Shown: positions 9,961 through 52,304 of the stretch, piece after piece
Layout: every line of letters begins with the position of its first letter
Numbering within the stretch: position 1 is the stretch's first letter
Source: Candidatus Dojkabacteria bacterium
Lineage (GTDB): Bacteria > Patescibacteriota > Dojkabacteria > J137
Direction: 5' to 3'
NCBI GenBank assembly: GCA_030834985.1
Contig: JAUQWV010000001.1
Location: 23,778 to 87,777 of the forward strand
DNA length: 64,000 bases
Notes under the pieces: model-generated
Seen by the model: only the letters and a program-made list of their open reading frames with translations
Database searches by the model: none
What the model was told of the DNA's origin: nothing
Made by a program: the position numbers and the translations under genes

Positions 9961-10139
9961 AAGTGAAGCTTAATAAATTATCATTGGGATTATATTTTAA
10001 TATTTGCCGTACTGTCAAATAAGTTTGGAAAACCCCAATGTACAATGATTTCTTCGTTTTTATAATACCAGATTATTGTAATTATGCAACTGGTCTAAAA
10101 ATCCTATATATCATATAATTGGGAGTTTAATATAATCAT

Positions 10140-11624
10140 ATGACAGCAAGAACAAGAATAGCACCAAGCCCTACAGGCTTAGGTTTACACATTGGCCATA
10201 TTAGAACAATGTTGTACGATTACGCATTGGCAAAAAATACAAATGGACAGTTTATTGTACGAATTGAAGATACTGATCAAAACAGATATGTTGAAGGAGC
10301 AGTTGAAAACATACTTAAAACAATTAAGGATTACGGATTAAATTACGATGAAGGTCCTATTGTGGAAGGGCCTTACACACCTTATGTGCAATCACAAAGA
10401 TTAGAGATCTATAAAAAATATGCATTAGAATTAATTCAAAAAGGTTATGCATATTATTGTTTTCTAACACCAGAAGAAACAGAAGAATTGCAAAAACAAG
10501 CAAGACTTGAAAATAAAAAATTAAGATCGCCTTATCGAAACACTTCCTTAGAAGAAGCAAATACGCTTATTGAACAAGGTAAAGAACATGTAGTTAGACT
10601 TAAAGTTCCAGAAGATGGAGAGATTATTTTTGAAGATGCTATTTTAGGAAGACTTAAGTTTAACAGTAACGAAGTTGATGATCAGATCTTATTAAAAACA
10701 GATGGTTTCCCAACTTATCATCTAGCCGTAGTAATAGACGATTACCTAATGAAAATTACTCATGTTTTAAGAGGTAACGATTGGCTCTCTTCTACTCCAA
10801 AACATATTCTACTTTATAGATATTTGGGATGGGAGTTGCCTGTTTTTGCACATTTACCAAATCTAAAAGAAAAAAATGAAAATAGAAAGTTATCTAAAAG
10901 GTATGGTGCAGTTTTTGCAAGCCAGTTCTTAGAACAAGGTTATCTGCCAGAAGCGCTGCTCAACTTTTTAATGCTATTAGGCTGGTCCTCTCCTATTGAA
11001 AGAAAACATGGTGAATCAGAAAAAGAAATTTATTCTTTACAAGAATTTGTAGAATTGTTTTCTTTAGATCGTGTCCAAAAAACTGCGCTCGTTTCTTTTG
11101 ACCGCGATAAACTCTTATGGTTCAACAAAGAATATATTAAGGCAAAGTCTGCCGATGATTTAAAAGATATCTTTGTAAATTGGTTTAAAAATCATAATCA
11201 AGACAAAACTTTAGAAGAATTCATTCTGCAAGATAGTCAGCTTGAAGGCAAGATAGCGTTAATAAAAGAAAGGGCCGGGACGTTGGTAGATATATTATCT
11301 CAGTTAAACTTTTTCTATATTAAGCCAGAAGGTATAGATTGGAATATTAAACAACTTGGAGCTGTAAATGAACATATAGATGAAATGAGAAAAGATCTGT
11401 ACGATTTGCACTCCACATTTAATGCTGACACAAAAAGTTGGTCCCATGAGGAGTGGGAAAAAGGAATAAGATCAATAGGTGATAAATATAATGCAAAACA
11501 TGGCGATATCTTTATGGTTTTAAGAGTTGCAATTGTTGGTATGCCATTTTCTCCACCACTCTTTGAAAGCCTGCAGCTAATGAATAAAGAAGATATATTA
11601 AGTAGGCTATATCCAAATTTTTAA
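10140..11624 (+). CDS. gltX: Glutamyl-tRNA synthetase
   Basis: Class I HIGH (HIGH at N-terminus) and KMSKS-like (KLSKR) motifs. Typical GluRS length. Confidence 0.9.
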   Translation: MTARTRIAPSPTGLGLHIGHIRTMLYDYALAKNTNGQFIVRIEDTDQNRYVEGAVENILKTIKDYGLNYDEGPIVEGPYTPYVQSQRLEIYKKYALELIQKGYAYYCFLTPEETEELQKQARLENKKLRSPYRNTSLEEANTLIEQGKEHVVRLKVPEDGEIIFEDAILGRLKFNSNEVDDQILLKTDGFPTYHLAVVIDDYLMKITHVLRGNDWLSSTPKHILLYRYLGWELPVFAHLPNLKEKNENRKLSKRYGAVFASQFLEQGYLPEALLNFLMLLGWSSPIERKHGESEKEIYSLQEFVELFSLDRVQKTALVSFDRDKLLWFNKEYIKAKSADDLKDIFVNWFKNHNQDKTLEEFILQDSQLEGKIALIKERAGTLVDILSQLNFFYIKPEGIDWNIKQLGAVNEHIDEMRKDLYDLHSTFNADTKSWSHEEWEKGIRSIGDKYNAKHGDIFMVLRVAIVGMPFSPPLFESLQLMNKEDILSRLYPNF

Positions 11625-11647
11625 AATGGTGTAGAATAACTTGATAT

Positions 11648-12706
11648 ATGCAAGTTTCATCACGACGCTCTAAAAATTATCTGCTTGGCGCTACTGAAAT
11701 TCCGTCTAATATTAAACGGCAAGTTGTAAGTAGACTATTTTGGGGTAGAAGTAACTTTTATAAAAATATTACCCATACATCTATATTGATAATAACAATT
11801 GCAGTAACACTTAGTGGTATTGTTTATAGAGTATCAGATGTAAGTGCTGGCGGTACTGCGTTAAGTGGAGAATATATTGTTGGCTCTGCAGATTTACTAA
11901 CACAAGGCGGCTCAATTTCTACAGTTTTACGTACAGATAATACGAATTTGAGTGCGCTGCAAAATAGGCGCCACACAGTTGCCTTTGGCGAAACACTCGA
12001 GTCTATTGCAGCGCAATACAACGTTTCAATGGATACAATCCGTTGGGCTAATCCAAATTTAATTAGTCCATTTACAAACGATATTCAGGTAGGTTGGGAC
12101 TTAGCAATTCCTCAAATAAATGGTGTGCTTTATACTGTTAGATCAGGTCAAAGTCTTGATGATATTATTTCTCTTACAAGTGTCAATAACAACGAATCAA
12201 ATCTTTTTAACATTGTTGAATTAAACCAGCTATCAGCTCCGTATACTTTAACTCCTGGCACAAAATTATTTATCCCAGGTGGAAATTTATTCGGGGAAGG
12301 CTTTCAAGTTGAAGGAATACCAAGAGGAATATTCATTGATCCTTTATCAAGCCCGGATTGTGACGGTTATCAATATCAAAGGGGTTTTTCTTTTTATCAC
12401 GATGGATTCGATTTATCAAAATGGGATGGATGTACAATACAAGCAGTAGCAAATGGCACAGTTTATTATGCAGGGTGGGAGGTTCTTTCGGGCTTGGCTA
12501 TTAAGATAGATCATGGTGGCGGAATTCATACATACTACTACCATCTAAGTGATATTTACGTAAAACCTGGCGACAGAGTTCAACAAGGTCAGGCAATTGG
12601 CTATATGGGTACAACAGGAAATAGTACAGGAACCCACTTACACTTTGTGCTGAAAAAAGATTATATTGCGGTTGACCCAGAACCTTACGTTCCATATAGA
12701 AAATAG
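11648..12706 (+). CDS. LysM domain-containing M23 family metallopeptidase (peptidoglycan hydrolase)
   Basis: LysM block (FGETLESIAAQYNVSMDTIRWANPNL). M23 motifs (HxxxD region, HTYYYHL, GTTGNSTGTHLHF). Confidence 0.8.
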   Translation: MQVSSRRSKNYLLGATEIPSNIKRQVVSRLFWGRSNFYKNITHTSILIITIAVTLSGIVYRVSDVSAGGTALSGEYIVGSADLLTQGGSISTVLRTDNTNLSALQNRRHTVAFGETLESIAAQYNVSMDTIRWANPNLISPFTNDIQVGWDLAIPQINGVLYTVRSGQSLDDIISLTSVNNNESNLFNIVELNQLSAPYTLTPGTKLFIPGGNLFGEGFQVEGIPRGIFIDPLSSPDCDGYQYQRGFSFYHDGFDLSKWDGCTIQAVANGTVYYAGWEVLSGLAIKIDHGGGIHTYYYHLSDIYVKPGDRVQQGQAIGYMGTTGNSTGTHLHFVLKKDYIAVDPEPYVPYRK

Positions 12707-12731
12707 TTTTTTGAACAGGTACAATTAAGAT

Positions 12732-14030
12732 ATGCTTAGAACTAAACTCAAGTGGCCAATTTTTATAACAATCCTGCTTATAACTTATGCACTTTGGTTA
12801 TATGCAAAATTTTCTGTTGAACAAGGGCTTTATCCAGAAGAAGTTTTCTTATACTTAAGCCAACTTTTTGCGGTAACTGCAGTTATATTAATGTCTTTAA
12901 ATTTTATTTTATCTGCTAGATCATATTTTGTTGAAAGTCTGTTTGGAGGACTAGATAAAATGTATAGATTTCACAGACGTTTAGGGCAAATAGCGTTTGT
13001 ACTTGCGTGGTTTCACCCTGTACTACTACTTGTTACAAGATTTGTGGGTATTGAATCTCTAAGATTATATTTTATTCCAGGCTCAATTTTGTGGTACAAC
13101 TTTGGAATATCAGCACTTTATACACTTACCCTGATTATTATGTTTACTGTTATAAGAGTGCTACCCTATCATATTTGGAAACATACACACAGACTAATGA
13201 TTCTGGTTTTAATCCTTGTAGGTATGCATATGTTTAGTGCATTAACACCAGAGCCATTATTTAGATTGTGGATGTTTGGATGGCTTGTTGCTGGAATTTT
13301 TAGTTGGATATATGTTCAGTTCTTATACAAGAAAGTTGGTCCAGTTTTTTACTACAAAGTTGTAAGAACAAATAAAGTAGGTGAAATCACCGAGCTTTAT
13401 TTGGAGCCTCAAAATAAACCATTGTTATACAAACCTGGACAATTTGTCTTTATGTCTTTCATGAATAATAAAGATATTGGTGGAGAGTTCCATCCATTTT
13501 CTATCTCTTCAAATCCTCATGAATATAGCATAAGAATCTCTGCAAAGTCATTGGGAGATTACACTAACCAACTTACAAAAACAAATATTGGAGATTTGGT
13601 TAAATTAATTGGACCTTATGGTTACTTTACTTCAGAGCGCACAAAGGGTGCTTCTAAGCAAATCTGGATTGCTGGTGGTATTGGTGTAACGCCGTTTTTA
13701 AGCATGCTAGCTTCTGAAAAAGACGAACCTTCAAACGGCAAAATTCACTTCTTCTACTCCACAAAAACAGAAGAAGAAGCTGTTTATAAAGATGAAATAT
13801 TAAAAGGCTCAGAAGAGCTCTCTGATTTGCATATTAATTTTAATTACGATAATAAAGACGGCTACTTAAATGCAAAGAAAATTGCAGAGCAAGTCGGTGA
13901 CTTAACAAATGCAAAAATATTGATTTGCGGACCTAAGATTATGATGTACACCTTAAGAAAACAATTTAAAGAACTTGGATTGACAGACGCACAAATAATT
14001 TTTGAGGACTTTGCTTTAAAACCTGAGTAG
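12732..14030 (+). CDS. Ferric-reductase/NOX-like flavocytochrome (6-TM heme domain + FAD/NAD(P)-binding domain)
   Basis: Paired His motifs in TM helices (H-x13-H), HPFSISS FAD motif, GGIGVTPF NAD motif, C-terminal CGP motif. Confidence 0.8.
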   Translation: MLRTKLKWPIFITILLITYALWLYAKFSVEQGLYPEEVFLYLSQLFAVTAVILMSLNFILSARSYFVESLFGGLDKMYRFHRRLGQIAFVLAWFHPVLLLVTRFVGIESLRLYFIPGSILWYNFGISALYTLTLIIMFTVIRVLPYHIWKHTHRLMILVLILVGMHMFSALTPEPLFRLWMFGWLVAGIFSWIYVQFLYKKVGPVFYYKVVRTNKVGEITELYLEPQNKPLLYKPGQFVFMSFMNNKDIGGEFHPFSISSNPHEYSIRISAKSLGDYTNQLTKTNIGDLVKLIGPYGYFTSERTKGASKQIWIAGGIGVTPFLSMLASEKDEPSNGKIHFFYSTKTEEEAVYKDEILKGSEELSDLHINFNYDNKDGYLNAKKIAEQVGDLTNAKILICGPKIMMYTLRKQFKELGLTDAQIIFEDFALKPE

Positions 14031-14048: not shown

Positions 14049-16559
14049 ATGGATCCATTGGTGTTTCTACTAATAATCGTCTTTTTGATAGCGTTCATGG
14101 TTGTCGCCAATATCGTGTTGCAAAGATATTACAACCTAAAAGTAAGAGTTAACGAAACGATTGTAGATAAAGTTGTATTAAAGATTGCAGTTCCTGTACG
14201 AAACGATAAAAAAGCTCTGGCGGCTGAACAAATGTTTCAATCTTTCCACGGAATTCTAAAAGGCGATAAAGCAAGTAAAGATCATTACTCTTTTGAAATT
14301 TTTGCTGCAAATCACGGTATATATTTTGTTGTTGTATGCTCTAATCGATATAGAACCTTTTTAGAAAATCAGATTTATGCACAATATCCAGAAGCTCAAA
14401 TCACTGTTGTACCAGATTATGCACAGCATCATCCAAGCGAGCTGACAACTGTCAGCGAGCTTAGTCTAGAAAGAGAGTTTTTTTTACCTATCAAAACTTT
14501 TACAAGTTTTGAAGTTGACCCTTTAGCATCAATTACAAGTGCTGTATCTAATTTAACCCCCGGTTTTGAGGTTTGGATTCAGCTTTTAGCCCGGCCAATA
14601 AGTAATGACTGGCAAGTTAAAGGTAAAGAATATGTAGATAAGATTAGAAACGAAAAAGATGCTGAAGGCAATAAAAAAGAGCCTGATTCTTCCGTTGTTG
14701 AAACTTTTGGGGATATCTCACGTAAGTCAGATAAGGTTGGTTTTCAGTTTAGAATTAGAATTATAGGAAAAGGACCAGATGAAAATACAGTTAAGCGACT
14801 TGTAGAAGATACTGAAGCCGCATTCAAACAATTCCAAACTACAAAATTAAATAGTATTGTTAAGCCAAAGTCCAAAAAGAAAGGATTTTTTGATAAATTG
14901 GGCGACAAAATAGAATTATTTTTTAGCGGAAAAAGGCTTGGTGATAAATTAACTGCGCTTCAAAAATATCAGTTTAGGTACCTAGACGAACGCGAAAAAA
15001 ATATTGCAAATATCGAAGAGCTTGCCTCGTTATATCATTTGCCAAACGAAACTGTAAAAACTCCGAATATTGCATGGGCTAAATCCAGAAAACTTGAATT
15101 CCCTTTAAATCTACCGGTTCTAAAGCAAGATCCCGCTGCAAATCAGGGAATCCGTGCTATGGCTCTTACAGATTATAGAAATATTCATCTACCTTTTGGC
15201 ATAAAAGCTGAAGATAGAAGACGTCATATGTATTTACTTGGTAAAACTGGTACAGGTAAATCTACTTTTTTAAAGAATATGATTGTAGGTGATATTCTAG
15301 ATGGAAACGGCTTAGCAGTTTTAGATCCGCACGGAGATCTAGTTGAAGAAATCTTAGATTTGATTCCAGAACACAGAATTAAAGATGTAATTTATTTAGA
15401 CCCTTCGGATGTTGAATTCCCGATAGGCCTTAATATGTTAGATATCAAGGAAGGTGAGACACTAGACTTATTAGCAGACGGTATTGTTAATGTATTTAAA
15501 AAGTTCTTTGGCGAAATGTCGTGGGGGCCAAGGCTTCAGCACTTACTATATAACTCTGTAGCTACATTGCTTCACTGTCAAAATGTTTCTTTACTTGCAG
15601 TTTTAAGAATACTAAATGATAAAAACTATAGGACGTTTCTTCTTAAGCAAGTTAAAGATCCATTCTTAATTAAATTCTGGGAGGAAGAATATGCTCAGTT
15701 AAGCATAAACCCAAGGCTATTAGCCGAAGCTGTGGCTCCAATTCAGAATAAAGTTGGTAGATTTTTAGGTTCTACAATGGTCAGAAACATGATTGGCCAA
15801 ATAAAATCTACCATTGATTTATCTGAAGTTATGAACAGCGGGAAAATCTTGTTAGTAAATCTATCTCAAGGAAAGATTGGTGAAGAAAGCTCATCATTAC
15901 TTGGAGCTATGATTGTCACAAGGCTCTATTCTAATGCAATGCAGCGTGCCAGAATGGCAAAGGAAGATAGACGTGATTTCTATTTATATGTGGATGAATT
16001 TCAAAACTTTGCAACGGAATCATTTATTAAAATTTTATCTGAAGCAAGAAAATACGGATTAAACCTAATAGTAACACACCAATATATAGATCAGATTGAT
16101 GAAAAAATTCAGGATGCTATCTTTGGAAATATCGGGACATTAATGAATTATGTTGTAAGTCAAAAAGACGGTGCAAGGCTTGAAAAGGAATATACTCCAT
16201 ATTTAGGTATGGAAGATCTTGTAAACTTAGATAAATATCGAATTGCAATGAAGATGACTGTTGATATGGCACAAACTCCTCCATTTACAGCTATTGCTAT
16301 GAAGCCTAGCTATCAATTTTACGGGTTAAAAGATGAAGTTAAAGAGTTCTGCCGAAGAACATATGCAAAGCCTAGGGATCAAGTTGAATTAAAGCTTAAT
16401 AAATGGGCAAGCCAAGTTTACGATAAAAATGGCAACCTAGTGCAAAAAACTGATGAGGTTGCTCCTACATCTAATAAAAAATTCAGCGGTAAAAAAACAT
16501 TTAAAGATAATAAAAACGCCTCTAACGCTTCTGCTTCACAAAGTATTCCGCAAGCTTAA
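14049..16559 (+). CDS. Membrane-anchored type IV coupling protein-like ATPase (VirD4/TraD/TraG family) with a ~380-aa N-terminal region of unknown function
   Basis: N-terminal TM. Walker A LLGKTGTGKST. Walker B in FYLYVDEFQNF, followed by the RKYG...THQ...Q block typical of T4CPs. Confidence 0.6.
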   Translation: MDPLVFLLIIVFLIAFMVVANIVLQRYYNLKVRVNETIVDKVVLKIAVPVRNDKKALAAEQMFQSFHGILKGDKASKDHYSFEIFAANHGIYFVVVCSNRYRTFLENQIYAQYPEAQITVVPDYAQHHPSELTTVSELSLEREFFLPIKTFTSFEVDPLASITSAVSNLTPGFEVWIQLLARPISNDWQVKGKEYVDKIRNEKDAEGNKKEPDSSVVETFGDISRKSDKVGFQFRIRIIGKGPDENTVKRLVEDTEAAFKQFQTTKLNSIVKPKSKKKGFFDKLGDKIELFFSGKRLGDKLTALQKYQFRYLDEREKNIANIEELASLYHLPNETVKTPNIAWAKSRKLEFPLNLPVLKQDPAANQGIRAMALTDYRNIHLPFGIKAEDRRRHMYLLGKTGTGKSTFLKNMIVGDILDGNGLAVLDPHGDLVEEILDLIPEHRIKDVIYLDPSDVEFPIGLNMLDIKEGETLDLLADGIVNVFKKFFGEMSWGPRLQHLLYNSVATLLHCQNVSLLAVLRILNDKNYRTFLLKQVKDPFLIKFWEEEYAQLSINPRLLAEAVAPIQNKVGRFLGSTMVRNMIGQIKSTIDLSEVMNSGKILLVNLSQGKIGEESSSLLGAMIVTRLYSNAMQRARMAKEDRRDFYLYVDEFQNFATESFIKILSEARKYGLNLIVTHQYIDQIDEKIQDAIFGNIGTLMNYVVSQKDGARLEKEYTPYLGMEDLVNLDKYRIAMKMTVDMAQTPPFTAIAMKPSYQFYGLKDEVKEFCRRTYAKPRDQVELKLNKWASQVYDKNGNLVQKTDEVAPTSNKKFSGKKTFKDNKNASNASASQSIPQA

Positions 16560-16633
16560 AGCTAGCATATACGTTATAATTAAACGCTCGTAAAAATATC
16601 CATGCTATAGGCTGGAAATAAGGAGATCATGTA

Positions 16634-16852
16634 ATGCCAGACAAACCGCAAGAAACAGTTGGCGGCACTTTTTTGGTGCCACCTACCCCACCTGCACACA
16701 TCCCGTCTGAGTTCGAGGTCCTCCCCCCATTCCGTCTGAACAGAGAGAAAGGGGAGGCAAAGAAGCCGTCAGAACCAAGCGGATACTGCGGGTACGGATA
16801 CGACGACATTACAGCCGAACAGCGCGAAGCCCACGAGGATTATGGGGGCTGA
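16634..16852 (+). CDS. Hypothetical Pro-rich acidic small protein (72 aa)
   Basis: SD aaggagatc 7 nt upstream. Terminator hairpin 16869-16892. Confidence 0.5.
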   Translation: MPDKPQETVGGTFLVPPTPPAHIPSEFEVLPPFRLNREKGEAKKPSEPSGYCGYGYDDITAEQREAHEDYGG

Positions 16853-16868
16853 GCGCTAAAACACCTTA

Positions 16869-16900
16869 AGGGCGGGCTAAATCGCCCGCCCTCAAAAACA
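16869..16900 (+). terminator. Rho-independent terminator-like hairpin (agggcgggc/gcccgccct)
   Basis: 9-bp GC stem and 6-nt loop, followed by caaaaacatttcttc. Confidence 0.5.
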
Positions 16901-16912
16901 TTTCTTCTAATA

Positions 16913-16940
16913 TTCACTAATTTACTATCGCTGATATAAT
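16913..16940 (+). promoter_or_regulatory. Sigma70-like promoter (TTCACT-16-TATAAT) for the 16987 gene
   Basis: Hexamers at 16913-16918 and 16935-16940. 5'-UTR hairpin ggttc..gaacc follows. Confidence 0.4.
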
Positions 16941-16986
16941 ACTGTATCCTGGTTCAATTTAGAACCGGAATAAAAAGGGGATGTAA

Positions 16987-17193
16987 ATGTCTCTAAGACG
17001 GGGTGACATAGAAAGTCAGAAGGCTCGTGAACTTGCAGAGGGATATCGCGAAGAGATCTCCACTGACGTACCGAATATAATCATCTTAAGGAGGCGTAAG
17101 CTTCTGAATGATGACGGTAATGGGAGTGAGATGAACATAAGCACTCAGCTTGACGACTTTGTATGTGAATGTACCGACTGCTTTGACGACTAG
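16987..17193 (+). CDS. Hypothetical acidic small protein (68 aa; C-terminal CECTDC)
   Basis: SD aaaagggga. Followed by terminator 17212-17250. Confidence 0.5.
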   Translation: MSLRRGDIESQKARELAEGYREEISTDVPNIIILRRRKLLNDDGNGSEMNISTQLDDFVCECTDCFDD

Positions 17194-17211
17194 CAAACCC
17201 TAACCACATAA

Positions 17212-17250
17212 GTCTGAGAATCTAAAGATTCTCAGACATACTTATTTTGT
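17212..17250 (+). terminator. Rho-independent terminator (gtctgagaatc/gattctcagac + T-tract)
   Basis: Perfect inverted repeat followed by atacttattttgt. Confidence 0.6.
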
Positions 17251-17262
17251 CACCCAAAATCG

Positions 17263-17290
17263 TTGACTTTGTATATATTTGTAATATAAT
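17263..17290 (+). promoter_or_regulatory. Sigma70-like promoter TTGACT-16-TATAAT
   Basis: Consensus -35 at 17263-17268 and consensus -10 at 17285-17290, upstream of the 17343 gene. Confidence 0.55.
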
Positions 17291-17342
17291 AGTATTTAAC
17301 CCTAATTGAATAGGGAATCGTTCTATAGCAAGGAGTTGAAAA

Positions 17343-17579
17343 ATGTTGGGTCATCAAGAATCTAGGTCAAAGTTTCGCCACCCAGCGCGTCTCCCCAACT
17401 ATCAGAAGCCGCAAATACTTAGAGAAGGAGTAGCGGCTTATGAGGAGGAGAAGGAAGACGCTACGGCCCACGCGGGTAGCTGGGAGTACTGGCCTAACGA
17501 CCCGAGTTTGATTCAGCAGTTTGATGACGAGGCTGTGGCGGATGAACCGCCCGGCCAAAATGGCGTTGACTGGATTTAA
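17343..17579 (+). CDS. Hypothetical acidic small protein (78 aa)
   Basis: SD caaggagtt. Terminator 17604-17640. Confidence 0.5.
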   Translation: MLGHQESRSKFRHPARLPNYQKPQILREGVAAYEEEKEDATAHAGSWEYWPNDPSLIQQFDDEAVADEPPGQNGVDWI

Positions 17580-17603
17580 TCCAGCGCGCTATATACTCCT
17601 ACT

Positions 17604-17640
17604 GTCCTGAGCAGCATGCTGCTCAGGACAATCCTTTATC
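17604..17640 (+). terminator. Rho-independent terminator (gtcctgagcagc/gctgctcaggac)
   Basis: 12-bp stem followed by aatcctttat. Confidence 0.55.
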
Positions 17641-17676
17641 CTATAGTAATTTTTTCTAAATTTTCTTCTAAAATCC

Positions 17677-17704
17677 TTGCATCATAATAGTTTTATGATA
17701 TTAT
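17677..17704 (+). promoter_or_regulatory. Sigma70-like promoter TTGCAT-16-TATTAT with TG extended -10
   Basis: Located upstream of the 11-codon ORF. Confidence 0.45.
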
Positions 17705-17737
17705 CGAAACATCCTTAAAAGAAAGGAGGTGCGCAGC

Positions 17738-17773
17738 ATGAAGAACAAGAAGTTTAATAATTGCTGCAAGTAG
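17738..17773 (+). CDS. 11-codon mini-ORF (MKNKKFNNCCK) with a strong SD
   Basis: aaaggaggt is 8 nt upstream of the ATG. Followed by a ~70-nt untranslated stretch, then hairpin 17843-17875 whose loop contains aaggagg. Confidence 0.35.
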   Translation: MKNKKFNNCCK

Positions 17774-17842
17774 ACGACCCTGCCGGCCGGATACCGATCG
17801 AAGTGACGTAGTTAGTCCTTCCCACCCCTTATTCTTTTGGAA

Positions 17843-17900
17843 GCTAGACCCCCTCCAAGGAGGCTGGGGTCTAGCCTCAGCTTATTCCCCTTTTACTAAA
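17843..17900 (+). terminator. Terminator-like hairpin (gctagacccc...ggggtctagc) + T-rich tail
   Basis: 10-bp stem, SD-like loop, followed by ctcagcttattcccctttt. Confidence 0.5.
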
Positions 17901-17958
17901 TTAAAGAAACTATTGTATACTTTTTTACCATCGTTTTAGAGCCAGGAGGGCCTTTTAG

Positions 17959-18168
17959 ATGGCGGATGAAAGTTGTCCAAATTGTAAACGGCCGTTAACA
18001 AACGGCAGATATATGGTACGGTGCTCGCGTTGCGGAAAGGCTGCCTGTTATAAGGTAGACTTTCTAGGAGGCGCTAAGCCTAGTGAGTGCTGTGCTCATA
18101 ATTTATGGCAGAACGAAGCCTGCCTAAAAGAAGGTGAACGGCATAAATTCAAGCCGTCCAGCGAGTAG
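17959..18168 (+). CDS. Small Cys-rich zinc-ribbon-like protein (69 aa)
   Basis: CPNC...CSRC pairs plus additional Cys. SD ccaggaggg. Terminator 18173-18205. Confidence 0.5.
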   Translation: MADESCPNCKRPLTNGRYMVRCSRCGKAACYKVDFLGGAKPSECCAHNLWQNEACLKEGERHKFKPSSE

Positions 18169-18172
18169 TAAA

Positions 18173-18205
18173 GCGCCCTGCTTTTGCAGGGCGCAAAACC
18201 TTTCA
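18173..18205 (+). terminator. Rho-independent terminator (gcgccctgc/gcagggcgc)
   Basis: 9-bp stem and tttt loop, followed by aaaaccttt. Confidence 0.55.
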
Positions 18206-18260
18206 TTTAGTATTTCTAAGCATAGAATTAAAGTGATATAATTCATAGCTCATATCGTAT

Positions 18261-18331
18261 TCGGGGTTCGTCTAGTGGTAGGACAACAGTTTCTGGAACT
18301 GTTTACTGGGGTTCGAATCCCTGACCCCGAG
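18261..18331 (+). tRNA. tRNA-Gln (anticodon CUG)
   Basis: Cloverleaf built by hand: 7-bp acceptor with U1-A72 and G73 discriminator (bacterial Gln identity). D-stem GTCT/GGAC. Anticodon stem ACAGT/ACTGT with loop TTCTGGA. T-loop TTCGAAT. No encoded CCA. Confidence 0.8.
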
Positions 18332-18334
18332 TTT

Positions 18335-40967: not shown

Positions 40968-41594
40968 ATGAATAACTTAATAAGTTGGTTTTCAAAACTT
41001 AATATATATTTAGGAGTATTTTTAATTCTGAGCGCTCCTGCATACCTATTTTTATCAGCAGAGCTAAAACCTGTACTAGTTACATCTAATTCTTTACCTG
41101 CAACTCCTACAGAAAGAGAAAATGAAATACTAACTAACAACTTAGCCATTAAAGGCGTGCTTTCTGGTTCTAGAAACACAATGAAAGCTGTAAAAGTTGC
41201 AGATGATGCTCATATTAGAATTAATTCTATAGGGTTAGATGCAAAGATTTACGAAGGAGCTGATTTTAAAACCTTAGAACAGGGAATTTGGAGAATGCCG
41301 ATGCATGCTACACCAGACGACCAAGTTAGTGGTCAACCTGTTGTTTTAGCAGGTCACAGATGGGGTGAAGATAATTTTACATACGAATATAGAAGTAAAA
41401 ACCTATTTTTGAATATCCCTACTCTAAATAAGGGTGACATTATTGAAATTACCTGGAATGGTCAGTTTTATAAATACAAAGTCGAATACTTAAGTAAAGA
41501 TATTTATGTGGATAGATTATCTGACCTGATTCTAATAACCTGTGTAGACTATGTTTCTACAACTAGATATTTTGTTTTTGCTGAAAGAGTTTAA
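40968..41594 (+). CDS. Sortase family transpeptidase
   Basis: N-terminal TM, LAGHR His, ILITC active-site Cys, downstream Arg. Confidence 0.75.
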   Translation: MNNLISWFSKLNIYLGVFLILSAPAYLFLSAELKPVLVTSNSLPATPTERENEILTNNLAIKGVLSGSRNTMKAVKVADDAHIRINSIGLDAKIYEGADFKTLEQGIWRMPMHATPDDQVSGQPVVLAGHRWGEDNFTYEYRSKNLFLNIPTLNKGDIIEITWNGQFYKYKVEYLSKDIYVDRLSDLILITCVDYVSTTRYFVFAERV

Positions 41595-41960: not shown

Positions 41961-42016
41961 CTGGGCTGCCACCATATATTTATATATTGAGCAGCCCAGA
42001 AATCAGGATTTTTTAA
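41961..42016 (+). terminator. Rho-independent terminator (ctgggctgc...gcagcccag + T-tract)
   Basis: Stem-loop followed by aaatcaggatttttt. Confidence 0.55.
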
Positions 42017-42315
42017 TACTGATTGAGTGGGATCACCCATTAATGAGTATTAAAAATACTCGCTCTTTAACAACTGTTTAAACAGTTGTGAAAAATCTTA
42101 AACATTAACTGTATGGCCTAAAAGCTTGCAGGTTTAAGGTATTTCTCGCAACTATTGCTTAAATATTTATATAAGCACTCAATGCGGGCAAATTGTTAAT
42201 TATAAAAATAGTTAGCAGCTTGTCCGTCATTGAGTGCTTCCCTCGCGAGGGCATTCAAAACGGCGTATCGAAAGTTTCGCAAGTTTATTCAAGCCCTGAG
42301 AGGGCGGAGGTCAAA

Positions 42316-43740
42316 ATGCAGAAACGCAAGATGTTCTTGATCTTGGCAATAGCCTTGATCGTGGCTCTGGCGCTGCCCCTTGGGGTCAGCGCGCAGGGGA
42401 ATGAAATCGTGGCATACACCTATGCCGGGCAGACTTACACATTCGTCAGCGGTCACCCAGTTTTTCAGCCAGGTGATACAACGACAACCGGTAAGCTGCT
42501 GAGTTCCTCATACCCATTCAGCGTGCAATCATACGCTAACCGTACGGCAATGGAGAACGGAAACGTTCTCGGTCGTGCAGATGCTGAATATGTAGCTACA
42601 CTGCTCGGTGATGAGTACACGCTAAGTGTGCAAGGCACCACAGCAGCTATGTGGTTGGAGGTCATCGTAGGAAGTATCGAATCAGATGGCTTCTGGTACG
42701 ATGGCACTCTGACCTCACTGCATAACGGGCACTTAGTCGTCCCAGCCGGTGACACGCAGGTCACGCCGCAGGTAATGTCTTCAAATGCTGTCTTCGTGGT
42801 GGTCAACTATCTCGATGCAGCGGCAGTGGAGGCATCCACCCCGGCGGGTAGCCTTCCGGCAAATTGTACAACCCTTGTGGGTCAGCAATGCACTGTCGAA
42901 GTGCGCGGTACGGATGCGTCTATGATGCTGGAAATACTCCCTGCTTCAACGGCTAGTGGCAGCGTCACCGCAACGGTAATCCCAGCAGTGGTAGCTACTA
43001 CAACGCCGAATCCTTTGCTTGGAGAGGTAACACCTATCCCAGCACAGAGTGCTACTGGACTGACCCCGTCTGCTGTGGTCTTCCCTTCTGCTTCGAACAC
43101 GTGGGTGTGGGGTCCCATTCAAGGACAAAATCCGATGATCCGGGATTGGCAGATAACCTTGTCACAGTTGGGGGTAACTCCGGCTTTGTGGCAAACGCCA
43201 CCCAACGTGGATAATCCGTTGGTTGACAATAGTCTGTTCCCGACCACTGCTCAGTCACCTGCGCCATGGGGCATCGAATGGCCCGGTACCGACCTGACGT
43301 TGTTTTGTCAGCAAGATACGCGGTGCGACGAAGTAATTTCGGCGCAACACATACGGTACTATACTGGCAACCTTGAACCAAACGGTATGGGGTCTGTCAA
43401 GCCGTGCCATCAGCAGGGTGGGATCGGATGCATGTTGATCCAGGTCAACTCGAACGGTGAGACTGATTCGGTTTTCACTGATCAGGGTTTCATTCGGGGT
43501 TATACGTTCCAAGGGCGTTACTGGGATGGCAATCATCTGGGTAATGGTCTATGGGGGTTAATCTCGTTTGGGACTGCAAACATGACCAATCAGTTGACCA
43601 ACATCAACCAGCCGGGTCTGACCAATGCCGGTGGCAACTGCTCTACGGCGGCGGGCTGCATTGGAACATATATTCAATTGCAGTTCCTGTCGGGAGGTTT
43701 CGAAGAGGGCTATGGCGAGTTTTTGTATATCAAGCCATAG
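42316..43740 (+). CDS. Secreted hypothetical protein (signal peptide; Thr/Val/Ala-rich), high-GC gene
   Basis: SD ggaggt 7 nt upstream of the ATG at 42316; the longer ORF from 42193 is unlikely. Signal peptide MQKRKMFLILAIALIVALALPLGVSA. Confidence 0.6.
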   Translation: MQKRKMFLILAIALIVALALPLGVSAQGNEIVAYTYAGQTYTFVSGHPVFQPGDTTTTGKLLSSSYPFSVQSYANRTAMENGNVLGRADAEYVATLLGDEYTLSVQGTTAAMWLEVIVGSIESDGFWYDGTLTSLHNGHLVVPAGDTQVTPQVMSSNAVFVVVNYLDAAAVEASTPAGSLPANCTTLVGQQCTVEVRGTDASMMLEILPASTASGSVTATVIPAVVATTTPNPLLGEVTPIPAQSATGLTPSAVVFPSASNTWVWGPIQGQNPMIRDWQITLSQLGVTPALWQTPPNVDNPLVDNSLFPTTAQSPAPWGIEWPGTDLTLFCQQDTRCDEVISAQHIRYYTGNLEPNGMGSVKPCHQQGGIGCMLIQVNSNGETDSVFTDQGFIRGYTFQGRYWDGNHLGNGLWGLISFGTANMTNQLTNINQPGLTNAGGNCSTAAGCIGTYIQLQFLSGGFEEGYGEFLYIKP

Positions 43741-43827
43741 TTAAGCAATAGGCGAGAGAAGTTTCCGGACGACCTTGTGTCGTCCGGACTCGCTTTAAGT
43801 AGATTTTAATTATCAAGTCTATTTAAA

Positions 43828-44130
43828 ATGAGTTTATTTAATAAATTTTTAGATATGGCAAATATCAAAGTAAATCTAAGTGATACAGCATTAAAAATGA
43901 TTGCTGTATTGGCAGTTTGTATAACAATTTTAGTATCATCTGCTCTGTTTGTTTTTAGTAGAAACGAAGACAGACGATCTGAGATTATTATAGATTGTTT
44001 TAACGTTGCTACTTATAGTGCAACTAATGAAGATAGTAAATCACAAGTAAAAGAGCCAATCCTTCGATTCTTTAAGAGCTGTATGGAGTTTAATGGTTAT
44101 GGAAGCGATTATTCTTTTTTAACTGAATAA
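43828..44130 (+). CDS. Hypothetical small membrane protein (100 aa)
   Basis: AT-rich ORF inside the island with one TM helix. Weak. Confidence 0.3.
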   Translation: MSLFNKFLDMANIKVNLSDTALKMIAVLAVCITILVSSALFVFSRNEDRRSEIIIDCFNVATYSATNEDSKSQVKEPILRFFKSCMEFNGYGSDYSFLTE

Positions 44131-44419
44131 GGTTTGATTTTGAACAAATTAAGCGCCTCGAAAGAGGCGCTTTTTTGATGCTTTTTCATCCTAAAATATG
44201 GTAAAAATCGCTAAAAATCTTGCCTGTTAAGACTTTGTGTCATCCGTAAGCTTGACGATTTGATATATCTGATATATACTGTATATGTAAGATTTCTTTA
44301 TAGAATCTACGTTCTTTAATAATACAGCAGATAACCTAGATCACGAATTTTAGGACATTTATACAATATTATTGTCTTGGAATTCGTGATTTAGGTAAGA
44401 ACTTATCTAGGAGAATAAA

Positions 44420-45397
44420 ATGCGCAAGTCACGTAAGTGGCTGTTGATCCTCCCTGTTCTCGTTTTGGCTATTGTTGTGATCGCAGTTCTGCTTCCTAAA
44501 GCTCCTGTTCTGGAAACAGTTCGGTGGGCTAGTCTGAACGACTGGGCCCCTGATGGCGCTATCAGTCGTGTAGGAGATCGCTGGTATTTTTCCAGCGGTA
44601 CCTACGGTAGAGTTTACGATCCAGACTTTGGCAGCGGGTGGAACCAAGACGTTATTGGTCCATCCAATGTACCTGAGGCGTTTGACCAAAACTACGCGGC
44701 ACCGGGTTCTGTTCTTCAGATAAATGGAAAGTGGTTTATGTTCTACCATGGTGAGAGCCATGAATGCGCAGGACATTTCCCCTTCCATGCCGGCATTGGG
44801 CTGGCAACCTCTGAAGATGGGTATTTCTGGACGCGTCAAGGTCAGATTCTTTCTACTTGGGAAGAACGTCCGACGTGTCAGGAAAACCGCGCAAGCGGTG
44901 TGGGGTATCCTAGTGCAGTCCAGCACGACGGATATATTTATCTTTACTTTGTATCTTGGACATCGGCGGAAGCCGATGCCACTCATGTGGCAAGATGCGA
45001 AGCCGAGCATATTCTCGAATCTGATTGCTGGAAGAAATATTTCCAAGGCGATTGGATGGAACCTGGCTTGGGCGGTCACAGCACTCCGGTGCTGAGTCGT
45101 TCAAGTGAAGCAGAGCTGTATTTAGCAGCTCCACAAGTTCAAATCTCTGAAGGTACTTTCTTAGGAGTGTTCGAGACCAATCTTGGGTTTGTGACCGCCA
45201 CGTCACAAGACGGTATTGTATGGTCACAACCTAAAACAATCTTTGAGTTCCCAAAACCTCATATCGAGGCGACAGGACAAGATTGGTACAGCTATCCTAC
45301 CCTGATCCGTGAAGACGGTCAGTGGTGGCTGTATATGGCTCGGCAGGACAGCAGCCTTGTGCATCACATGCACAGAATTGCTGTAACACTCCCATAA
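44420..45397 (+). CDS. Secreted hypothetical protein, possible beta-propeller glycoside-hydrolase-like fold; high-GC gene
   Basis: SD aggaga. Signal/anchor. W/Y/G-rich repeats. No firm family assignment. Confidence 0.5.
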   Translation: MRKSRKWLLILPVLVLAIVVIAVLLPKAPVLETVRWASLNDWAPDGAISRVGDRWYFSSGTYGRVYDPDFGSGWNQDVIGPSNVPEAFDQNYAAPGSVLQINGKWFMFYHGESHECAGHFPFHAGIGLATSEDGYFWTRQGQILSTWEERPTCQENRASGVGYPSAVQHDGYIYLYFVSWTSAEADATHVARCEAEHILESDCWKKYFQGDWMEPGLGGHSTPVLSRSSEAELYLAAPQVQISEGTFLGVFETNLGFVTATSQDGIVWSQPKTIFEFPKPHIEATGQDWYSYPTLIREDGQWWLYMARQDSSLVHHMHRIAVTLP

Positions 45398-45674
45398 ATC
45401 TGCTGCTTAAGCGGCGGGGCGGTGAAAACCGACCCGCCGCAAAGCTTTAATATTTTCAAACAAGGAAGCCTAATCTTTGTTTGAGCACATTAAGGCTAAG
45501 GAGGCCTATCGTGATCAAAGCACTGAAGGGCTGTTTTTGGATGGTTCTTATGACAGTCATGGCAGTTCTTATTGCTGGAATCGGAATCATTTCCGTTCTG
45601 GCGCAATCATAAATTTAAGGTGCGGGCGTTCCGCCCGCACCTTAAAGAAGCTACAATATACCAGAAAGCAGATA

Positions 45675-48600
45675 ATGAAATTCAAAAAAGTTTTAAATAA
45701 AATTAAAGATACTATTTTAGATTACAAATTTTTAATAATTCTTGTAATCATTTGGCTTTTAATCTGCTACACCAACTACACTCCAAACACGTTTATAACA
45801 GGATGGGATAATCTGCATCCAGAGTTTGATTACTCAATGAATCTAAAGCGGTTATTAACTAGTTCTTGGGCTGAATATCAAGGCTTAGGTGCTCCAGGAG
45901 CTCACTCTCATGCATCTGAAATTCCAAGAATGTTGATTATTGGAATATTGAATCTAGTATTTGAACAGCAGGCTGTGAGATATGCGTTTGTATTTGGAAC
46001 AATCATAATTGGAGTATTAGGAGTGTATTTTCTTGTTAGAAATATAATACTTAAGTATAAGAAAAAGTCCTTAAGAGATTTTTCTGCTTTTGTTGCTGCT
46101 TTATTCTATATGCTGAATATAGGGACTGTTCAGCATTATATTGCAACATTTGAAATGTTCAACATTCAATATGCGCTACTACCCTGGTTAATATATACAG
46201 CACTTAGATTCTTAGACACTAAAAGGCATAAATACCTTTTGATGTTTGGAATTATTACTTTTTTTGCCGCTCCAATGGCTTATGCAGTAATGCTTTGGCT
46301 TGCTTATTTTGCAGCACTTGCTGTATTTTTGCTTATTAATGTTATTCAAAAACGGGATATCTCGACTTTAAAATCCAGCTTTTTTCTTTTAGCATCTACT
46401 TTATTAATAAACCTATTCTGGCTTGTTCCTAACTTGTATTTTGTATTTAACCACAGTAATTATGTTCCTACTGCTAAAACAAACTTAATATTTTCGGAAG
46501 AAGCTTTTTTAACTAATCAAAAATATGGAAATTTAATCGATATCTTTTTAAATAAGGGCTTTCTGTTTGATTGGCAAATTAGGAATACAAACTATACTTT
46601 TGAACCGATAATGGGAGCTTGGGATACTCATTTAGATAATCCTTTGATTTTGGCGATTGCATTATTATGCCTAGCTTTAATAATAGCCGGAATACTTTAT
46701 GCAATCGCCAAACGCAACCGCTATTTAATTAGTATTATTGGAATCTTAATATTTTCAGTTGTTGTATTAATAGGTATAAATCCTCCGTTTACAGATCTTT
46801 GGGAATCTGTGGTTTCAAAAATTCCTGCACTACAGGAAGCAATCCGATTTCCATTTACTAAATTTTCGATCTTATTCATCTTTGCTCAGACTCTTTTGTT
46901 GTCGGGCGGCGTTTATGCGGTTTCTCAAATAATCACAAAGAAAATAAGATTTAATTATGGAGGTTTATTAGTTTTAATTGCAGTATTATTTGTTGCTTTT
47001 GTTTATTCTTTACCAACATTTCAAGGAAACTTTATTAACAAGTCTTTAAGAATAAATATTCCGCAGGATTATTTTGAATTATTTGATTACTTTAAAGATC
47101 AAGATAAAGCTACAAGAATTGCAAACTTTCCTGTAAGCAGTCTATTTGGCTGGTTTTATACAGACTGGGGTTATCAAGGTTCCGGTTTTTTGTGGTATGG
47201 AATTGAACAGCCGATTTTAGATAGAGATTTTGACCGCTGGTACACAACATTAGAAAATTACTATGATGAAATCAGCTCTGCAGTTTATACAAATAATGCT
47301 GAAAGTTTGAAAGAAGTATTGGCAAAATATGCAATTGATTGGATTGTAATTGATGAGCATGTAATGTCGTCTAGTGAAGAATCTAATATTGTATTTAACG
47401 AAAATCTTGCATCTTCAGAAATGGCGTATAAAGAAACAAAAGCTCTATTAGATCAAATTCCAGAAATTCAGCAAGCAGCAAGATTCGGGAAAATATATGT
47501 TTATAAAGTTACACTCGATTACGATCAAGAATTTGTTGAAACACTGGAAGAAGATTCTTCAGGTAAACCAATTGAAAGTAAAAGCATATTTTTAGAAGAT
47601 AACTTTGGTCGAAAAACAAATGAATCATTTTTTAGAAAGTTAAATAACGATTACTTAGTTTACAACAATACTATTTATACTCTTGATAATGAGCCTTTGA
47701 ACCTGCATATTCCTCAAATATTTGATTTGGAAACAAATATTCCTGCCACAATTAGTGCTAGAGTTAACGGTAATAATCTTGATGTAAAAATCAGTTATCA
47801 GGTACCTCGTATAGATATTAACAACAGAACATATGTAGATTACGGTAGATCAAGAATACTAAGTTTTAAATTAAATAACGTTACTGATACATACTATTTA
47901 AAAGTTGATGAACAATATATTTTAATAAATGATCCTGCAACTATCTGGCAAAGCTATGGTGTTGCCGATATTGATCTAACAAAAGATTTAAGCTTGAAGC
48001 TATATAATGCGCAAAATCCAGTTGATTTAACATCACGTTTAAATTTAGAAGACGCTCAAATTAATAATTGTGTTGGAGGAACTATTTCAAATCGATCAGG
48101 TGTTAGATTTAATAACGAGGTTTTAACTTTAAGTAGTGTGGGTGAAAACTTATGTGTTGATTTTACATTCACAACTTTGAACGCACTTGAATCTTTGTAC
48201 GAACTAAAACTGGATTATAGAAGTGATGAAGGTGTCAAAGCAGACGCATGTATAAAATTCTCTGAAGGTTGTGTTAATTCTAAGAATTTTACTAGTGATT
48301 TTATTCCAGGACTTTGGTATGAATCCTCAACATATGCATGGGACTTAAGTACAAATCGAATGGGTGTGTCTTTGATCTTGAATAACTCTGTGCCTGAAAA
48401 TCAATCTGCAATAAGCTATAGAAACATATACCTATATAGATATGCACTTGAAGATTCAAAGAGCTTAAGCATTAACGAAATTAAAAATGATATTAGAATT
48501 CAAAATACTGAACTTATTGTATTGCCAAAAAGTAATCGAATTGATGTTCAATTTACAATTCCTTGGGCAAAAAAATATGAGTTTGATTACGATATGCTAC

Positions 48601-49630: not shown

Positions 49631-49707
49631 AGGCCCCATCGTCTAGCGGTCTAGGACATTGCCTTTTCAAGGCAGTAACCGGGGTTCGAGTCCCCGTGGG
49701 GTCACCA
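49631..49707 (+). tRNA. tRNA-Glu (anticodon UUC), CCA encoded
   Basis: Hand-folded. Acceptor GGCCCCA/TGGGGTC. D-arm TCGTCTAGCGGTCTAGGAC (Glu-type). Anticodon loop TTTTCAA. T-arm GGGG TTCGAGT CCCC. ACCA 3' end. Confidence 0.85.
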
Positions 49708-51166: not shown

Positions 51167-51318
51167 TTGTTTTTCTTGTATAACAAATAGGCTTCCATCA
51201 CTATTCTGGCAAACATATCTATTTCATCCACCAGCTTTTCAATTAGAAATTTATCTTCAATTCCTAACGCTCTTATCTCTTTTTCTAAGAGTTTTCTTTT
51301 TTTGTCTTCCTGACTCAT
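51163..51318 (-). CDS. Small ORF (51 aa) overlapping the integrase start (TGA/ATG overlap); possible directionality factor/regulator
   Basis: Found manually; it is below the ORF-track cutoff. MSQEDKKRKLLEKEIRALG.... Confidence 0.35.
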   Translation of the reverse strand: MSQEDKKRKLLEKEIRALGIEDKFLIEKLVDEIDMFARIVMEAYLLYKKNK

Positions 51319-51411
51319 AGCTAAAACAATAAATTGCTTTAGCCTGAGTGCCTCTCAGCGCATCTGCTTGTAATTAAATAATCTATATTCCTGCCGTTTC
51401 TAGCTCAGAAT

Positions 51412-52233
51412 TTAGATTTTATAAACATCTTCCAATTTATAACTAACAATTTTGCCGTCTCTCTTTGTTATTTTTATATTAGTAAAATCTTTCTCTTTCA
51501 TTGATTCTATTAGCTCAATTTCAGTCATACCTTCAGTATTCTTTTCAAGTTCTCCATAAACATTAAATGTATTTTTATCTTTCTTCTTTATTGTGACTAA
51601 TGAGTAATTCTTATTCCTTAAAATATCTAATATTTCATTTTCTTTGTCAGATACTTTAGAACTTTGGGAGAAGTTAGCCATCAGTTCTACTAGATTATTA
51701 TGGCTTGGGAATTTAGAGTCTTCACCTTTTGTGAGTTTCCACACTTTCCTTACTATTTCATTAAAATTTATTAATGTATAGGAATGGTAATTTGAATCAA
51801 CAACAGTTTGATAACCAGTATCAACAAACCAAGATCTACCATCTGCAGTGAGAATAAGGGAGATTTTCACAGTACCCAAAACTAGAAGTAAAACATGGTC
51901 AACATCAGAAAACTTGGCGGTTCCTTTATTATGTTTATAAAAATCATCCCTAAGTTCTTGAAGTAAATCATTTTCAATTCCGTATTTTCTAAATTCAAGA
52001 ATTGTATATAGATACACCAGGTCTTTAAAACTAAATTTACGCCAACCTCTTTCATTTTCTCTCTCATCTTGAAGCATCGCACTTGCTCCTAGCGAGTTTA
52101 TTTGTCTATAGCTTAATGTTGAGTCTTTGACAGTATACTTTTTCTCACTTAATTTCTTATTTAGTTGTAATTTCACATCATCATTGCTATTGATGTAATA
52201 CCCAACCATTAATGATTCCGATATTAAAATCAT
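51412..52233 (-). CDS. MerR-type HTH protein with ~170-aa C-terminal domain of unknown function
   Basis: N-terminal YTVKDSTLSYRQINSLG...ENERGWRKFSFKDLVYLYTILEFRKYG matches the MerR HTH/wing pattern. Confidence 0.5.
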   Translation of the reverse strand: MILISESLMVGYYINSNDDVKLQLNKKLSEKKYTVKDSTLSYRQINSLGASAMLQDERENERGWRKFSFKDLVYLYTILEFRKYGIENDLLQELRDDFYKHNKGTAKFSDVDHVLLLVLGTVKISLILTADGRSWFVDTGYQTVVDSNYHSYTLINFNEIVRKVWKLTKGEDSKFPSHNNLVELMANFSQSSKVSDKENEILDILRNKNYSLVTIKKKDKNTFNVYGELEKNTEGMTEIELIESMKEKDFTNIKITKRDGKIVSYKLEDVYKI

Positions 52234-52304
52234 AAAACTATACTTACATGTATAATTTTATTTTATAAGGATTAAATTGAACTGTCAAGTATAATTTGAG
52301 GGAA

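Follow-up and report, generated by a model that had tools for sequence, protein, structure and literature searches.

A VirD4/TrwB-type ATPase with a predicted VirB4-like N-terminal domain in Candidatus Dojkabacteria belongs to a core protein family of Patescibacteria

Introduction

What might an ATPase resembling a type IV coupling protein (T4CP) do in a bacterium when no secretion genes are encoded next to it? This question is raised by a gene located at positions 14049 to 16559 (+ strand) of a 64 kb stretch of DNA from a Candidatus Dojkabacteria bacterium (contig JAUQWV010000001.1), the whole of which is referred to here as the window. A preliminary description, made from the sequence alone, had presented the product as an orphan coupling ATPase of the VirD4/TraD type with a novel N-terminal domain, and had considered that it might serve a secretion system encoded in trans, deliver small proteins encoded next to it, or represent a remnant of a conjugative element. 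Patescibacteria represent a large share of bacterial diversity and are host-dependent, and their type IV secretion system (T4SS) is the first on which the carrier bacterium itself was shown to depend for survival.

The gene encodes an ATPase that is anchored in the membrane by a single pass and falls in the VirB4/VirD4 branch of the FtsK-HerA superfamily. It is part of a family of coupling-protein-like ATPases that is near-universal in Patescibacteria, with roughly two copies per genome. It is an ordinary member of this catalogued family and a core, vertically inherited protein of the phylum. With regard to its role, the reading that we prefer, held with slightly less than even confidence, is that of an accessory translocation ATPase which would dock on a T4SS encoded in trans. 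Its N-terminal half, predicted to have the N-terminal fold of VirB4 and separable as its own polypeptide, turns this into a testable docking idea for unlinked ATPases, and also bears on the divergence of VirB4 and VirD4.

Protein architecture and the C-terminal motor domain

The gene and its product are organized as follows (all on the + strand):

14049..16559: coding sequence with ATG start, 836 aa, DUF8128 plus VirD4/TrwB-type ATPase (Patescibacteria T4CP-like family)
14055..14120: single N-terminal transmembrane (TM) helix, residues ~3-24, the sole Kyte-Doolittle segment >1.6
14151..15128: DUF8128 (PF26449) domain, residues ~35-360, predicted alpha/beta fold resembling the VirB4 N-terminal domain
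15198..16232: VirD4/VirB4-class nucleotide-binding domain, residues 384-728
15240..15263: Walker A, GKTGTGKS, residues 398-405
15462..15836: all-alpha insertion, residues 472-596, with eight predicted helices (AlphaFold 2 secondary structure)
15978..15998: Walker B strand plus D649 and E650 (FYLYVDE), inside YLYVDEFQNF
16047..16082: RKYGLNLIVTHQ block, residues 667-678, aligned to TrwB RKAGLRVVAGLQ (PDB alignment)
16455..16556: disordered K/S/N-rich basic C-terminal tail, residues 803-836, with a predicted local distance difference test score (pLDDT) <50

The open reading frame (ORF), the single TM helix, Walker A, Walker B within YVDEFQNF and the RKYG...THQ block (RKYG at residues 667-670 and THQ at 676-678) had all been recognized in the preliminary description and are all borne out. 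The AlphaFold 2 model has a helix at residues 3-30, no second hydrophobic segment was found in the Kyte-Doolittle scan of the protein, and the remainder is probably cytoplasmic, as basic residues come after the TM helix. N-terminal hydrophobic segments are also borne by the homologues, stand-alone DUF8128 proteins included. The all-alpha insertion lies between Walker A and Walker B, where the all-alpha domain (AAD) of T4CPs sits. Across 66 homologues (47-87% identity) residues G398, K399, G401, G403, K404, D649, E650, R667, K668 and Q678 are invariant, which argues that the catalytic motifs are under selection and are no chance matches; judged by this motif conservation, the T4CP-type motor domain is catalytically intact. 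The C-terminal tail varies in length between homologues, which range from 750 to 1,100 aa.

Profile searches agree with the earlier assignment of the C-terminal half to T4CPs as opposed to HerA or FtsK. The Pfam profile TrwB_AAD_bind (PF10412) passes its cutoff over residues 384-728 (39.4 bits against 20.5), the match covering profile positions 10-332 of 387 and therefore extending through the AAD region, and TraG-D_C (PF12696) passes as well (25.4 bits, cutoff 22). The generic P-loop module DUF87 also passes (30.4 bits vs 23.2). FtsK_SpoIIIE stays below threshold with coverage of the P-loop only (18 bits, cutoff 24), and CagE_TrbE_VirB (PF03135) does not match the protein. Among NCBIfam models, those for TraD fail (SXT_TraD, conj_TOL_TraD and TraD_Ftype with 46.4 vs 366, 31.4 vs 647 and 13.1 vs 521 bits, respectively), as does VirB4_plasma (19 bits vs 590), and the CedD and HerA models are far under their cutoffs.

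Structural comparison of the ATPase domain gave scores of 27.5 for the DptH C-domain, 27.2 for the VirB4 C-terminal domain (4ag5), 26.8 for TrwB, 23.4 for DotL, 23.2 for HerA, 17.4 for FtsK and 17.1 for TcpA; thus, HerA is structurally more distant and, in the predicted model, the ATPase domain is equidistant from VirB4 and TrwB/VirD4, which is new here. In a full-length Foldseek search TrwK chains ranked at the top (~900 aligned columns) with TrwB behind (~460; template-modelling score 0.62-0.65). These top matches to TrwK/VirB4, together with the VirB4-like two-domain architecture and size and an N-terminal TM helix that could mimic a VirB3 fusion, would fit a divergent VirB4, i.e. a T4SS assembly or energizing ATPase instead of a coupling protein. 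We nevertheless regard this as improbable: the two T4CP profiles match and the VirB4 profile CagE_TrbE_VirB does not, TrwB was the sole match in a sequence search of the PDB, and hhalign comparison of the family profile yielded a probability of 94.5% with TrwB compared to 0.7% with TrwK as a single sequence and 39-57%, in Walker regions only, with a 40-sequence VirB4 profile. In addition, Patescibacteria possess a separate VirB4 clade encoded beside VirB3/6/8/TrsD genes, and the window gene lies in no such cluster.

PADLOC matches to mad8 (8.5e-16) and DndH (1.9e-4) also raise the possibility of an anti-phage or anti-mobile-element defence ATPase related to MADS mad8 or DptH/DndH. This explanation appears very improbable, as the PADLOC matches involve the ATPase domain alone and reflect the shared VirB4/VirD4-type fold, no defence genes occur among the adjacent genes (gltX, those for an M23 peptidase and a ferric-reductase-like protein, and small ORFs), and the family is near-universal, lineage-syntenic and of native composition, as opposed to patchy, island-borne defence genes.

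The N-terminal DUF8128 domain

The N-terminal domain, which had been taken to be novel, corresponds to DUF8128 (PF26449) in precomputed Pfam annotation of all homologues, of the database protein identical to the window ATPase (P0001, present on 25 contigs) and of the called gene. Direct scans of residues 31-372 gave no Pfam match even at E values up to 10, because the older release that was used does not contain PF26449. In the structure prediction that the preliminary description had proposed, AlphaFold modelled residues 31-372 alone with a pLDDT of 91.8 and a predicted template-modelling score of 0.87, and a structure search with this confident model returned a 243-residue match. Since this match is longer than the Hcp1 tag fused in the matched entry, and no other P-loop ATPase is among the matches listed, it probably involves the VirB4 N-terminal domain, in agreement with the full-length Foldseek ranking of TrwK above TrwB. 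DUF8128 is therefore predicted to adopt the fold of the VirB4 N-terminal domain, and its position before the same class of ATPase likewise speaks for homology.

At the sequence level, a hidden Markov model (HMM) built from 42 diverse DUF8128 sequences found no match among all PDB sequences at E values up to 10. By hhalign, the DUF8128 profile gave no N-terminal-domain alignment with TrwK alone, and both with TrwK and with a shallow 40-sequence VirB4 profile (>=55% identity) produced spurious or Walker A matches only. The next structural neighbour of DUF8128, a much weaker match, is EccE, a membrane component of type VII secretion. A literature search for 'DUF8128' returned no papers, and the available text of the two publications on Patescibacteria T4CP homologues (PMC12102498, PMC10633639) does not describe the N-terminal domain; hence, its VirB4-like fold and its fused or split organization seem not to have been discussed in the searchable literature.

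Family distribution and modular organization

Rather than being an orphan, as had been supposed, the window ATPase belongs to a very large family. Its closest homologues are labelled Candidatus Dojkabacteria (WS6), a class of the Patescibacteria or Candidate Phyla Radiation (CPR), and a word-indexed search retrieved >7,700 full-length collinear homologues across CPR classes, the N-terminal domain alone forming 1,864 clusters at 50% identity. When one genome per species was scanned, at least 594 loci were identified, collinear throughout at 34-68% identity, in Dojka-, Sacchari-, Nomura-, Buchanan-, Peregrini-, Peri- and Magasanikbacteria. Family members were also seen on short contigs assigned to organisms outside the CPR, namely a Bulleidia sp. 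(L059) and a Chlamydiae bacterium (L072); these contigs are probably mis-binned Patescibacteria and not true occurrences beyond the phylum.

Neighbourhoods and architectures were counted by ORF clustering and domain HMMs on 80 related loci with 10 kb on either side. These contained 77 fused DUF8128-ATPase genes and eight split pairs from independent metagenome-assembled genomes (L060, L063, L065, L068, L077, L080, L081 and L082), in which an ORF of 424-488 aa with a TM helix and DUF8128 is directly followed by a separate ATPase ORF of 535-732 aa. Many stand-alone DUF8128 proteins of ~420 aa with their own TM helix also exist. The occurrence of the two modules either fused or as adjacent separate genes is reported here for the first time, and this fusion/fission pattern indicates that they function together.

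Five loci (L010, L011, L012, L014 and L078) carry two divergent DUF8128-ATPase paralogues (~35% mutual identity) within a few genes of each other, in line with a published average of about two T4CP homologues per genome and with the pair SEML1_0293/SEML1_0142 in Southlakia epibionticum. At such loci the copy beside a sigma-like gene is closer to the window protein (~600 vs ~420 bits), which suggests that the window gene falls in the dispensable subfamily typified by SEML1_0293.

Saccharibacteria loci and published Patescibacteria data

In Saccharibacteria loci the ATPase gene is preceded by dprA, topA and a gene for a Sigma70_r4+HARE-HTH protein, and followed by ftsQ-like, ftsW, mraY, ftsI, ftsL and rsmH genes. 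The Sigma70_r4+HARE-HTH protein (~350 aa), a Patescibacteria-specific transcription factor, is encoded directly upstream of the ATPase in 48 of the 80 loci (Saccharibacteria, within L015-L079); in Southlakia it corresponds to SEML1_0294, which is annotated as 'RpoS' and is essential (PMC10633639). ORF clustering of the 80 loci revealed no conserved operon partner, and no functional partner can be derived from the Saccharibacteria synteny, because none of it carries over to the Dojkabacteria.

In the same organism SEML1_0293 (921 aa; PF10412, PF12696 and PF01935 begin at about residue 402) adjoins SEML1_0294 and topA (SEML1_0296) (PMC10633639). These neighbours, which it has in common with the Saccharibacteria relatives of the window protein, and the Pfam architecture identify it as the probable Saccharibacteria counterpart of the window gene. 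SEML1_0293 was non-essential at all time points of transposon-insertion sequencing, in which the T4SS cluster was essential; SEML1_0142 (1,019 aa; TraM-recognition domain) and the canonical FtsK, SEML1_0096, were essential as well (PMC10633639). The last of these bears on the idea of an FtsK-like chromosome or septal DNA pump, for which one could cite the membrane-anchored FtsK-HerA superfamily ATPase itself, its location a few genes from the division and cell-wall genes of Saccharibacteria and the presence of ftsW and mraY <=10 kb away in the window. Given that Southlakia already has an essential canonical FtsK and can dispense with the ortholog of the window gene, and that the FtsK profile reaches only the P-loop and no gamma domain is present, such a pump is even less probable than a defence function.

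A survey of 3,035 Patescibacteria genomes recorded 5,713 VirD4-type T4CP homologues, 148 of them near virB4, in 2,918 genomes, and VirB4 in 2,417 genomes (Quinonero-Coronel et al. 2025, PMC12102498). According to the same study, Patescibacteria VirB4 proteins form a monophyletic clade related to mating-pair-formation type FATA (MPF-FATA) and are encoded beside VirB3/6/8/TrsD genes, relaxases are nearly absent, and the Dojkabacteria genomes in the accessible part of Table S1 are VirB4-positive. The preliminary description had held that a complete T4SS elsewhere, with its own T4CP and not co-varying with this gene, would speak against its proposal; what has been published comes close to this, in that Patescibacteria T4SS loci do exist and T4CP-like genes are unlinked to them and not restricted to genomes with a T4SS (PMC12102498).

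Possible roles of the ATPase

The preferred reading, that of an accessory ATPase feeding a T4SS encoded in trans, can be outlined by analogy with better-known machines. In that of R388 the N-terminal domain of VirB4 contacts VirB3 and VirB8, and EccE is likewise a membrane component, of an ESX complex containing the FtsK-like EccC. DUF8128 may serve as a docking module, and the ATPase might form a ring on the inner side of the membrane, as TrwB and VirB4 do. ATP hydrolysis in the C-terminal ring would push DNA or unfolded protein towards the T4SS, and the target would be the chromosomal MPF-FATA-like T4SS encoded elsewhere in Patescibacteria genomes, Dojkabacteria included. Because the counterpart SEML1_0293 is non-essential and the T4SS cluster essential, the ATPase would act as an accessory, condition-specific feeder outside the essential core of the machine.

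Several points weigh against this proposal. Canonical T4CPs have two TM helices and lack a VirB4-like N-terminal domain. The homology between DUF8128 and the VirB4 N-terminal domain, drawn from structure prediction, has no sequence signal in profile-profile or HMM searches, and no T4SS gene is linked to the ATPase in the window or in the 80 related loci with their flanks. The counts of the survey amount to T4CP-like genes in 96% of genomes and VirB4 in 80% (PMC12102498). The essential T4SS cluster of Southlakia epibionticum was described as having no recognisable coupling protein (Wang et al. 2023, PMC10633639), and the ortholog SEML1_0293 is dispensable there, this orthology being derived from synteny and domain layout and not from direct sequence comparison.

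The difference between 96% and 80%, the almost complete lack of linkage to virB4 and the fact that the ortholog is dispensable in an organism with an essential T4SS favour the main rival explanation, an exapted, T4SS-independent translocase. Such a motor would move DNA or protein either by itself or together with a different envelope machine (competence/ComEC, type IV pili or some other channel), as a lineage-specific housekeeping function of episymbiotic Patescibacteria. The authors of the survey themselves allow for it, stating that exaptation of t4cp cannot be excluded (PMC12102498). Consistent with it, the Saccharibacteria gene lies between dprA-topA and division/cell-wall genes, and the window gene within a housekeeping string. 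On the other hand, dprA and topA are commonly adjacent in bacteria and the neighbourhood differs from class to class, genome incompleteness (the dataset accepts genomes >50% complete) can explain part of the gap between 96% and 80%, and no alternative partner was identified. Furthermore, we know of no VirB4-type N-terminal domain outside T4SS-type machines, which also counts against an exapted translocase. On balance, we consider this explanation unlikely, while giving it appreciable weight.

A more far-reaching and still less likely interpretation is that the DUF8128-T4CP family constitutes an ancient third lineage within the VirB4/VirD4 clade, which would have retained a VirB4-type N-terminal docking domain and gained T4CP-type sequence features, and which perhaps acts as a phylum-wide T4SS-independent translocase. 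If true, the family would represent a living intermediate between VirB4 and VirD4, the signature ATPases of type IV secretion, and may traffic DNA or proteins at the interface between episymbiont and host.

Genomic neighbourhood in the window

The window has a GC content of ~0.34 and carries housekeeping genes including secA, lepA, prfB, gltX, pheS, ftsW and glyA; that of the ATPase gene (0.34-0.36) is like the rest of the genome. The flanks are those of the preliminary description, with a flavocytochrome gene 18 nt upstream and small ORFs plus a tRNA gene downstream:

10140-11624, + strand: gltX (Pfam)
11648-12706, + strand: LysM-M23 peptidase (Pfam)
12732-14030, + strand: ferric-reductase-like flavocytochrome (Ferric_reduct + FAD_binding_8 + NAD_binding_1; Pfam)
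18260-18332: tRNA-Gln

The ATPase gene is the last of the upstream string (10140..14030), all members of which are co-directional and separated by gaps of 23, 25 and 18 nt. A promoter-like site is present ahead of gltX (10039-10066), no convincing + strand terminator was seen between gltX and the ATPase gene, and gltX and the LysM-M23 peptidase and flavocytochrome genes are probably co-transcribed with the ATPase gene. The string is kept in an 87%-identical relative (L085) and missing in a 68%-identical one.

The statement that no VirB-type or relaxase genes lie nearby was confirmed by Pfam scans of ORFs >=110 aa over the whole 64 kb, in which no such gene or other T4SS family was detected and a few large ORFs had no match. 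This lack of T4SS and relaxase genes, together with a downstream tRNA gene and segment of unusual composition, would be in line with a decaying remnant of an integrated conjugative element, to which we attribute next to no likelihood and which can be regarded as effectively refuted. The ORF is intact with all its catalytic residues invariant across homologues, its GC content is genome-like, it stands in a housekeeping string, the same gene is found in chromosomal contexts in nearly all Patescibacteria, and neither an integrase nor direct repeats flank it, the recombinases of the window being >19 kb away. There is no sign of a mobile element at this locus, nor any evidence of a local secretion cassette; the gene is ordinary for its lineage.

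Between the ATPase gene and tRNA-Gln, the segment 16560-18259 has a GC content of 0.446 vs ~0.34 and contains four small + strand ORFs of 72, 68, 78 and 69 aa. Promoter-like sites precede those starting at 16987, 17343 and 17959, with none before the first (16634), and strong hairpins occur 3' of the first three (16864-16897, 17212-17237 and 17603-17630). Rfam detects tRNA-Gln only as structured RNA in the GC-rich segment at 16.5-18.3 kb. In the 87%-identical relative, counterparts of two of the four ORFs occupy the same slot, one an acidic protein with GVDWI at its end, the other a zinc-ribbon mini-protein with a CxxC...CxxC motif (L085 6604-7578), with tRNA-Gln inverted. The suggestion that the ATPase delivers these small proteins is not upheld, since they are found beside the gene only within this species and in this one relative; no link between them and the ATPase was found, and nothing comparable occurs at the gene elsewhere in the related loci.

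A raised GC content (+0.05-0.10) 3' of the ATPase gene was also observed in three Dojkabacteria of at least 68% identity (L085 6604-7578, L086 10512-11777 and L004 2825-4407, compared with 16560-18259 in the window), the sequences being unrelated. The L086 and L004 segments encode a weakly related protein of 177-194 aa with a hydrophobic, putatively signal-peptide-like N-terminus. At 58% identity, L005 has 1.2 kb with a GC rise of 0.05, nearly all of it within a 372-aa minus-strand ORF, and is not comparable; the rest of the family shows no downstream rise (mean difference -0.017). The segment downstream of the Dojkabacteria ATPase may be a variable insertion hotspot.

Elsewhere in the window, the region 49632-54135 looks like a small integrated restriction-modification island. 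A large serine recombinase gene (49667-51166, - strand) is overlapped at its end by a tRNA-Glu gene, and after it come an ORF without annotation and genes for a C5 cytosine methylase (52305-53291) and a restriction endonuclease of the NgoPII type (53293-54135). Furthermore, the GC content reaches 0.43-0.49 at 42-46 kb, in a genome of 0.33, within a region (42000-49523) located just downstream of a sortase gene (40968-41594). No significant Pfam family was assigned to its large ORFs (42193-43740, 44420-45397 and 45477-49523, the last of 1,348 aa), which may encode acquired surface proteins.

Comparison with known systems

Among FtsK-HerA superfamily members, the window ATPase differs from HerA, as no HAS-barrel is seen, and from FtsK/SpoIIIE, as it has neither FtsK alpha nor gamma domains; it falls outside both types. 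Unlike the DptH/DndH C-domain and MADS mad8, it lies outside any mad or dpt/dnd cluster and shows the phyletic pattern of a core gene. The resemblance of DUF8128 to EccE, a much weaker structural match with no sequence similarity, serves as a lead only.

With TrwB/VirD4/TraD the protein shares aligned Walker A, Walker B and RK.G...Q blocks, the all-alpha insertion and a membrane anchor. It departs from them in having one TM helix instead of two and a ~330-aa VirB4-like domain between anchor and ATPase, and in being encoded apart from a relaxase/Dtr (DNA transfer and replication) module or Mpf (mating pair formation) genes. Measured against these canonical coupling proteins, the family is an unusual variant. 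To VirB4/TrwK of R388 it is similar in overall size and in the succession of an N-terminal and a C-terminal domain, and dissimilar in showing no N-terminal sequence similarity by hhalign, in possessing its own TM helix and in not being adjacent to VirB3/6/8. TrsD plus TrsE, the split VirB4 of the pGO1-type Gram-positive T4SS, offers a parallel in arrangement alone, in that modules can be separate neighbouring genes; unlike Patescibacteria TrsD homologues, which adjoin virB4, DUF8128 ORFs adjoin ATPase ORFs of the T4CP type. The closest likeness is to the Patescibacteria T4CP homologues (PMC12102498) and SEML1_0293: SEML1_0293 occurs in Saccharibacteria and the window copy in Dojkabacteria, in another gene neighbourhood, and all have PF10412, PF12696 and PF01935 starting near residue 400 after an N-terminus of ~360-400 aa, and are chromosomal, distant from virB4 and without a relaxase.

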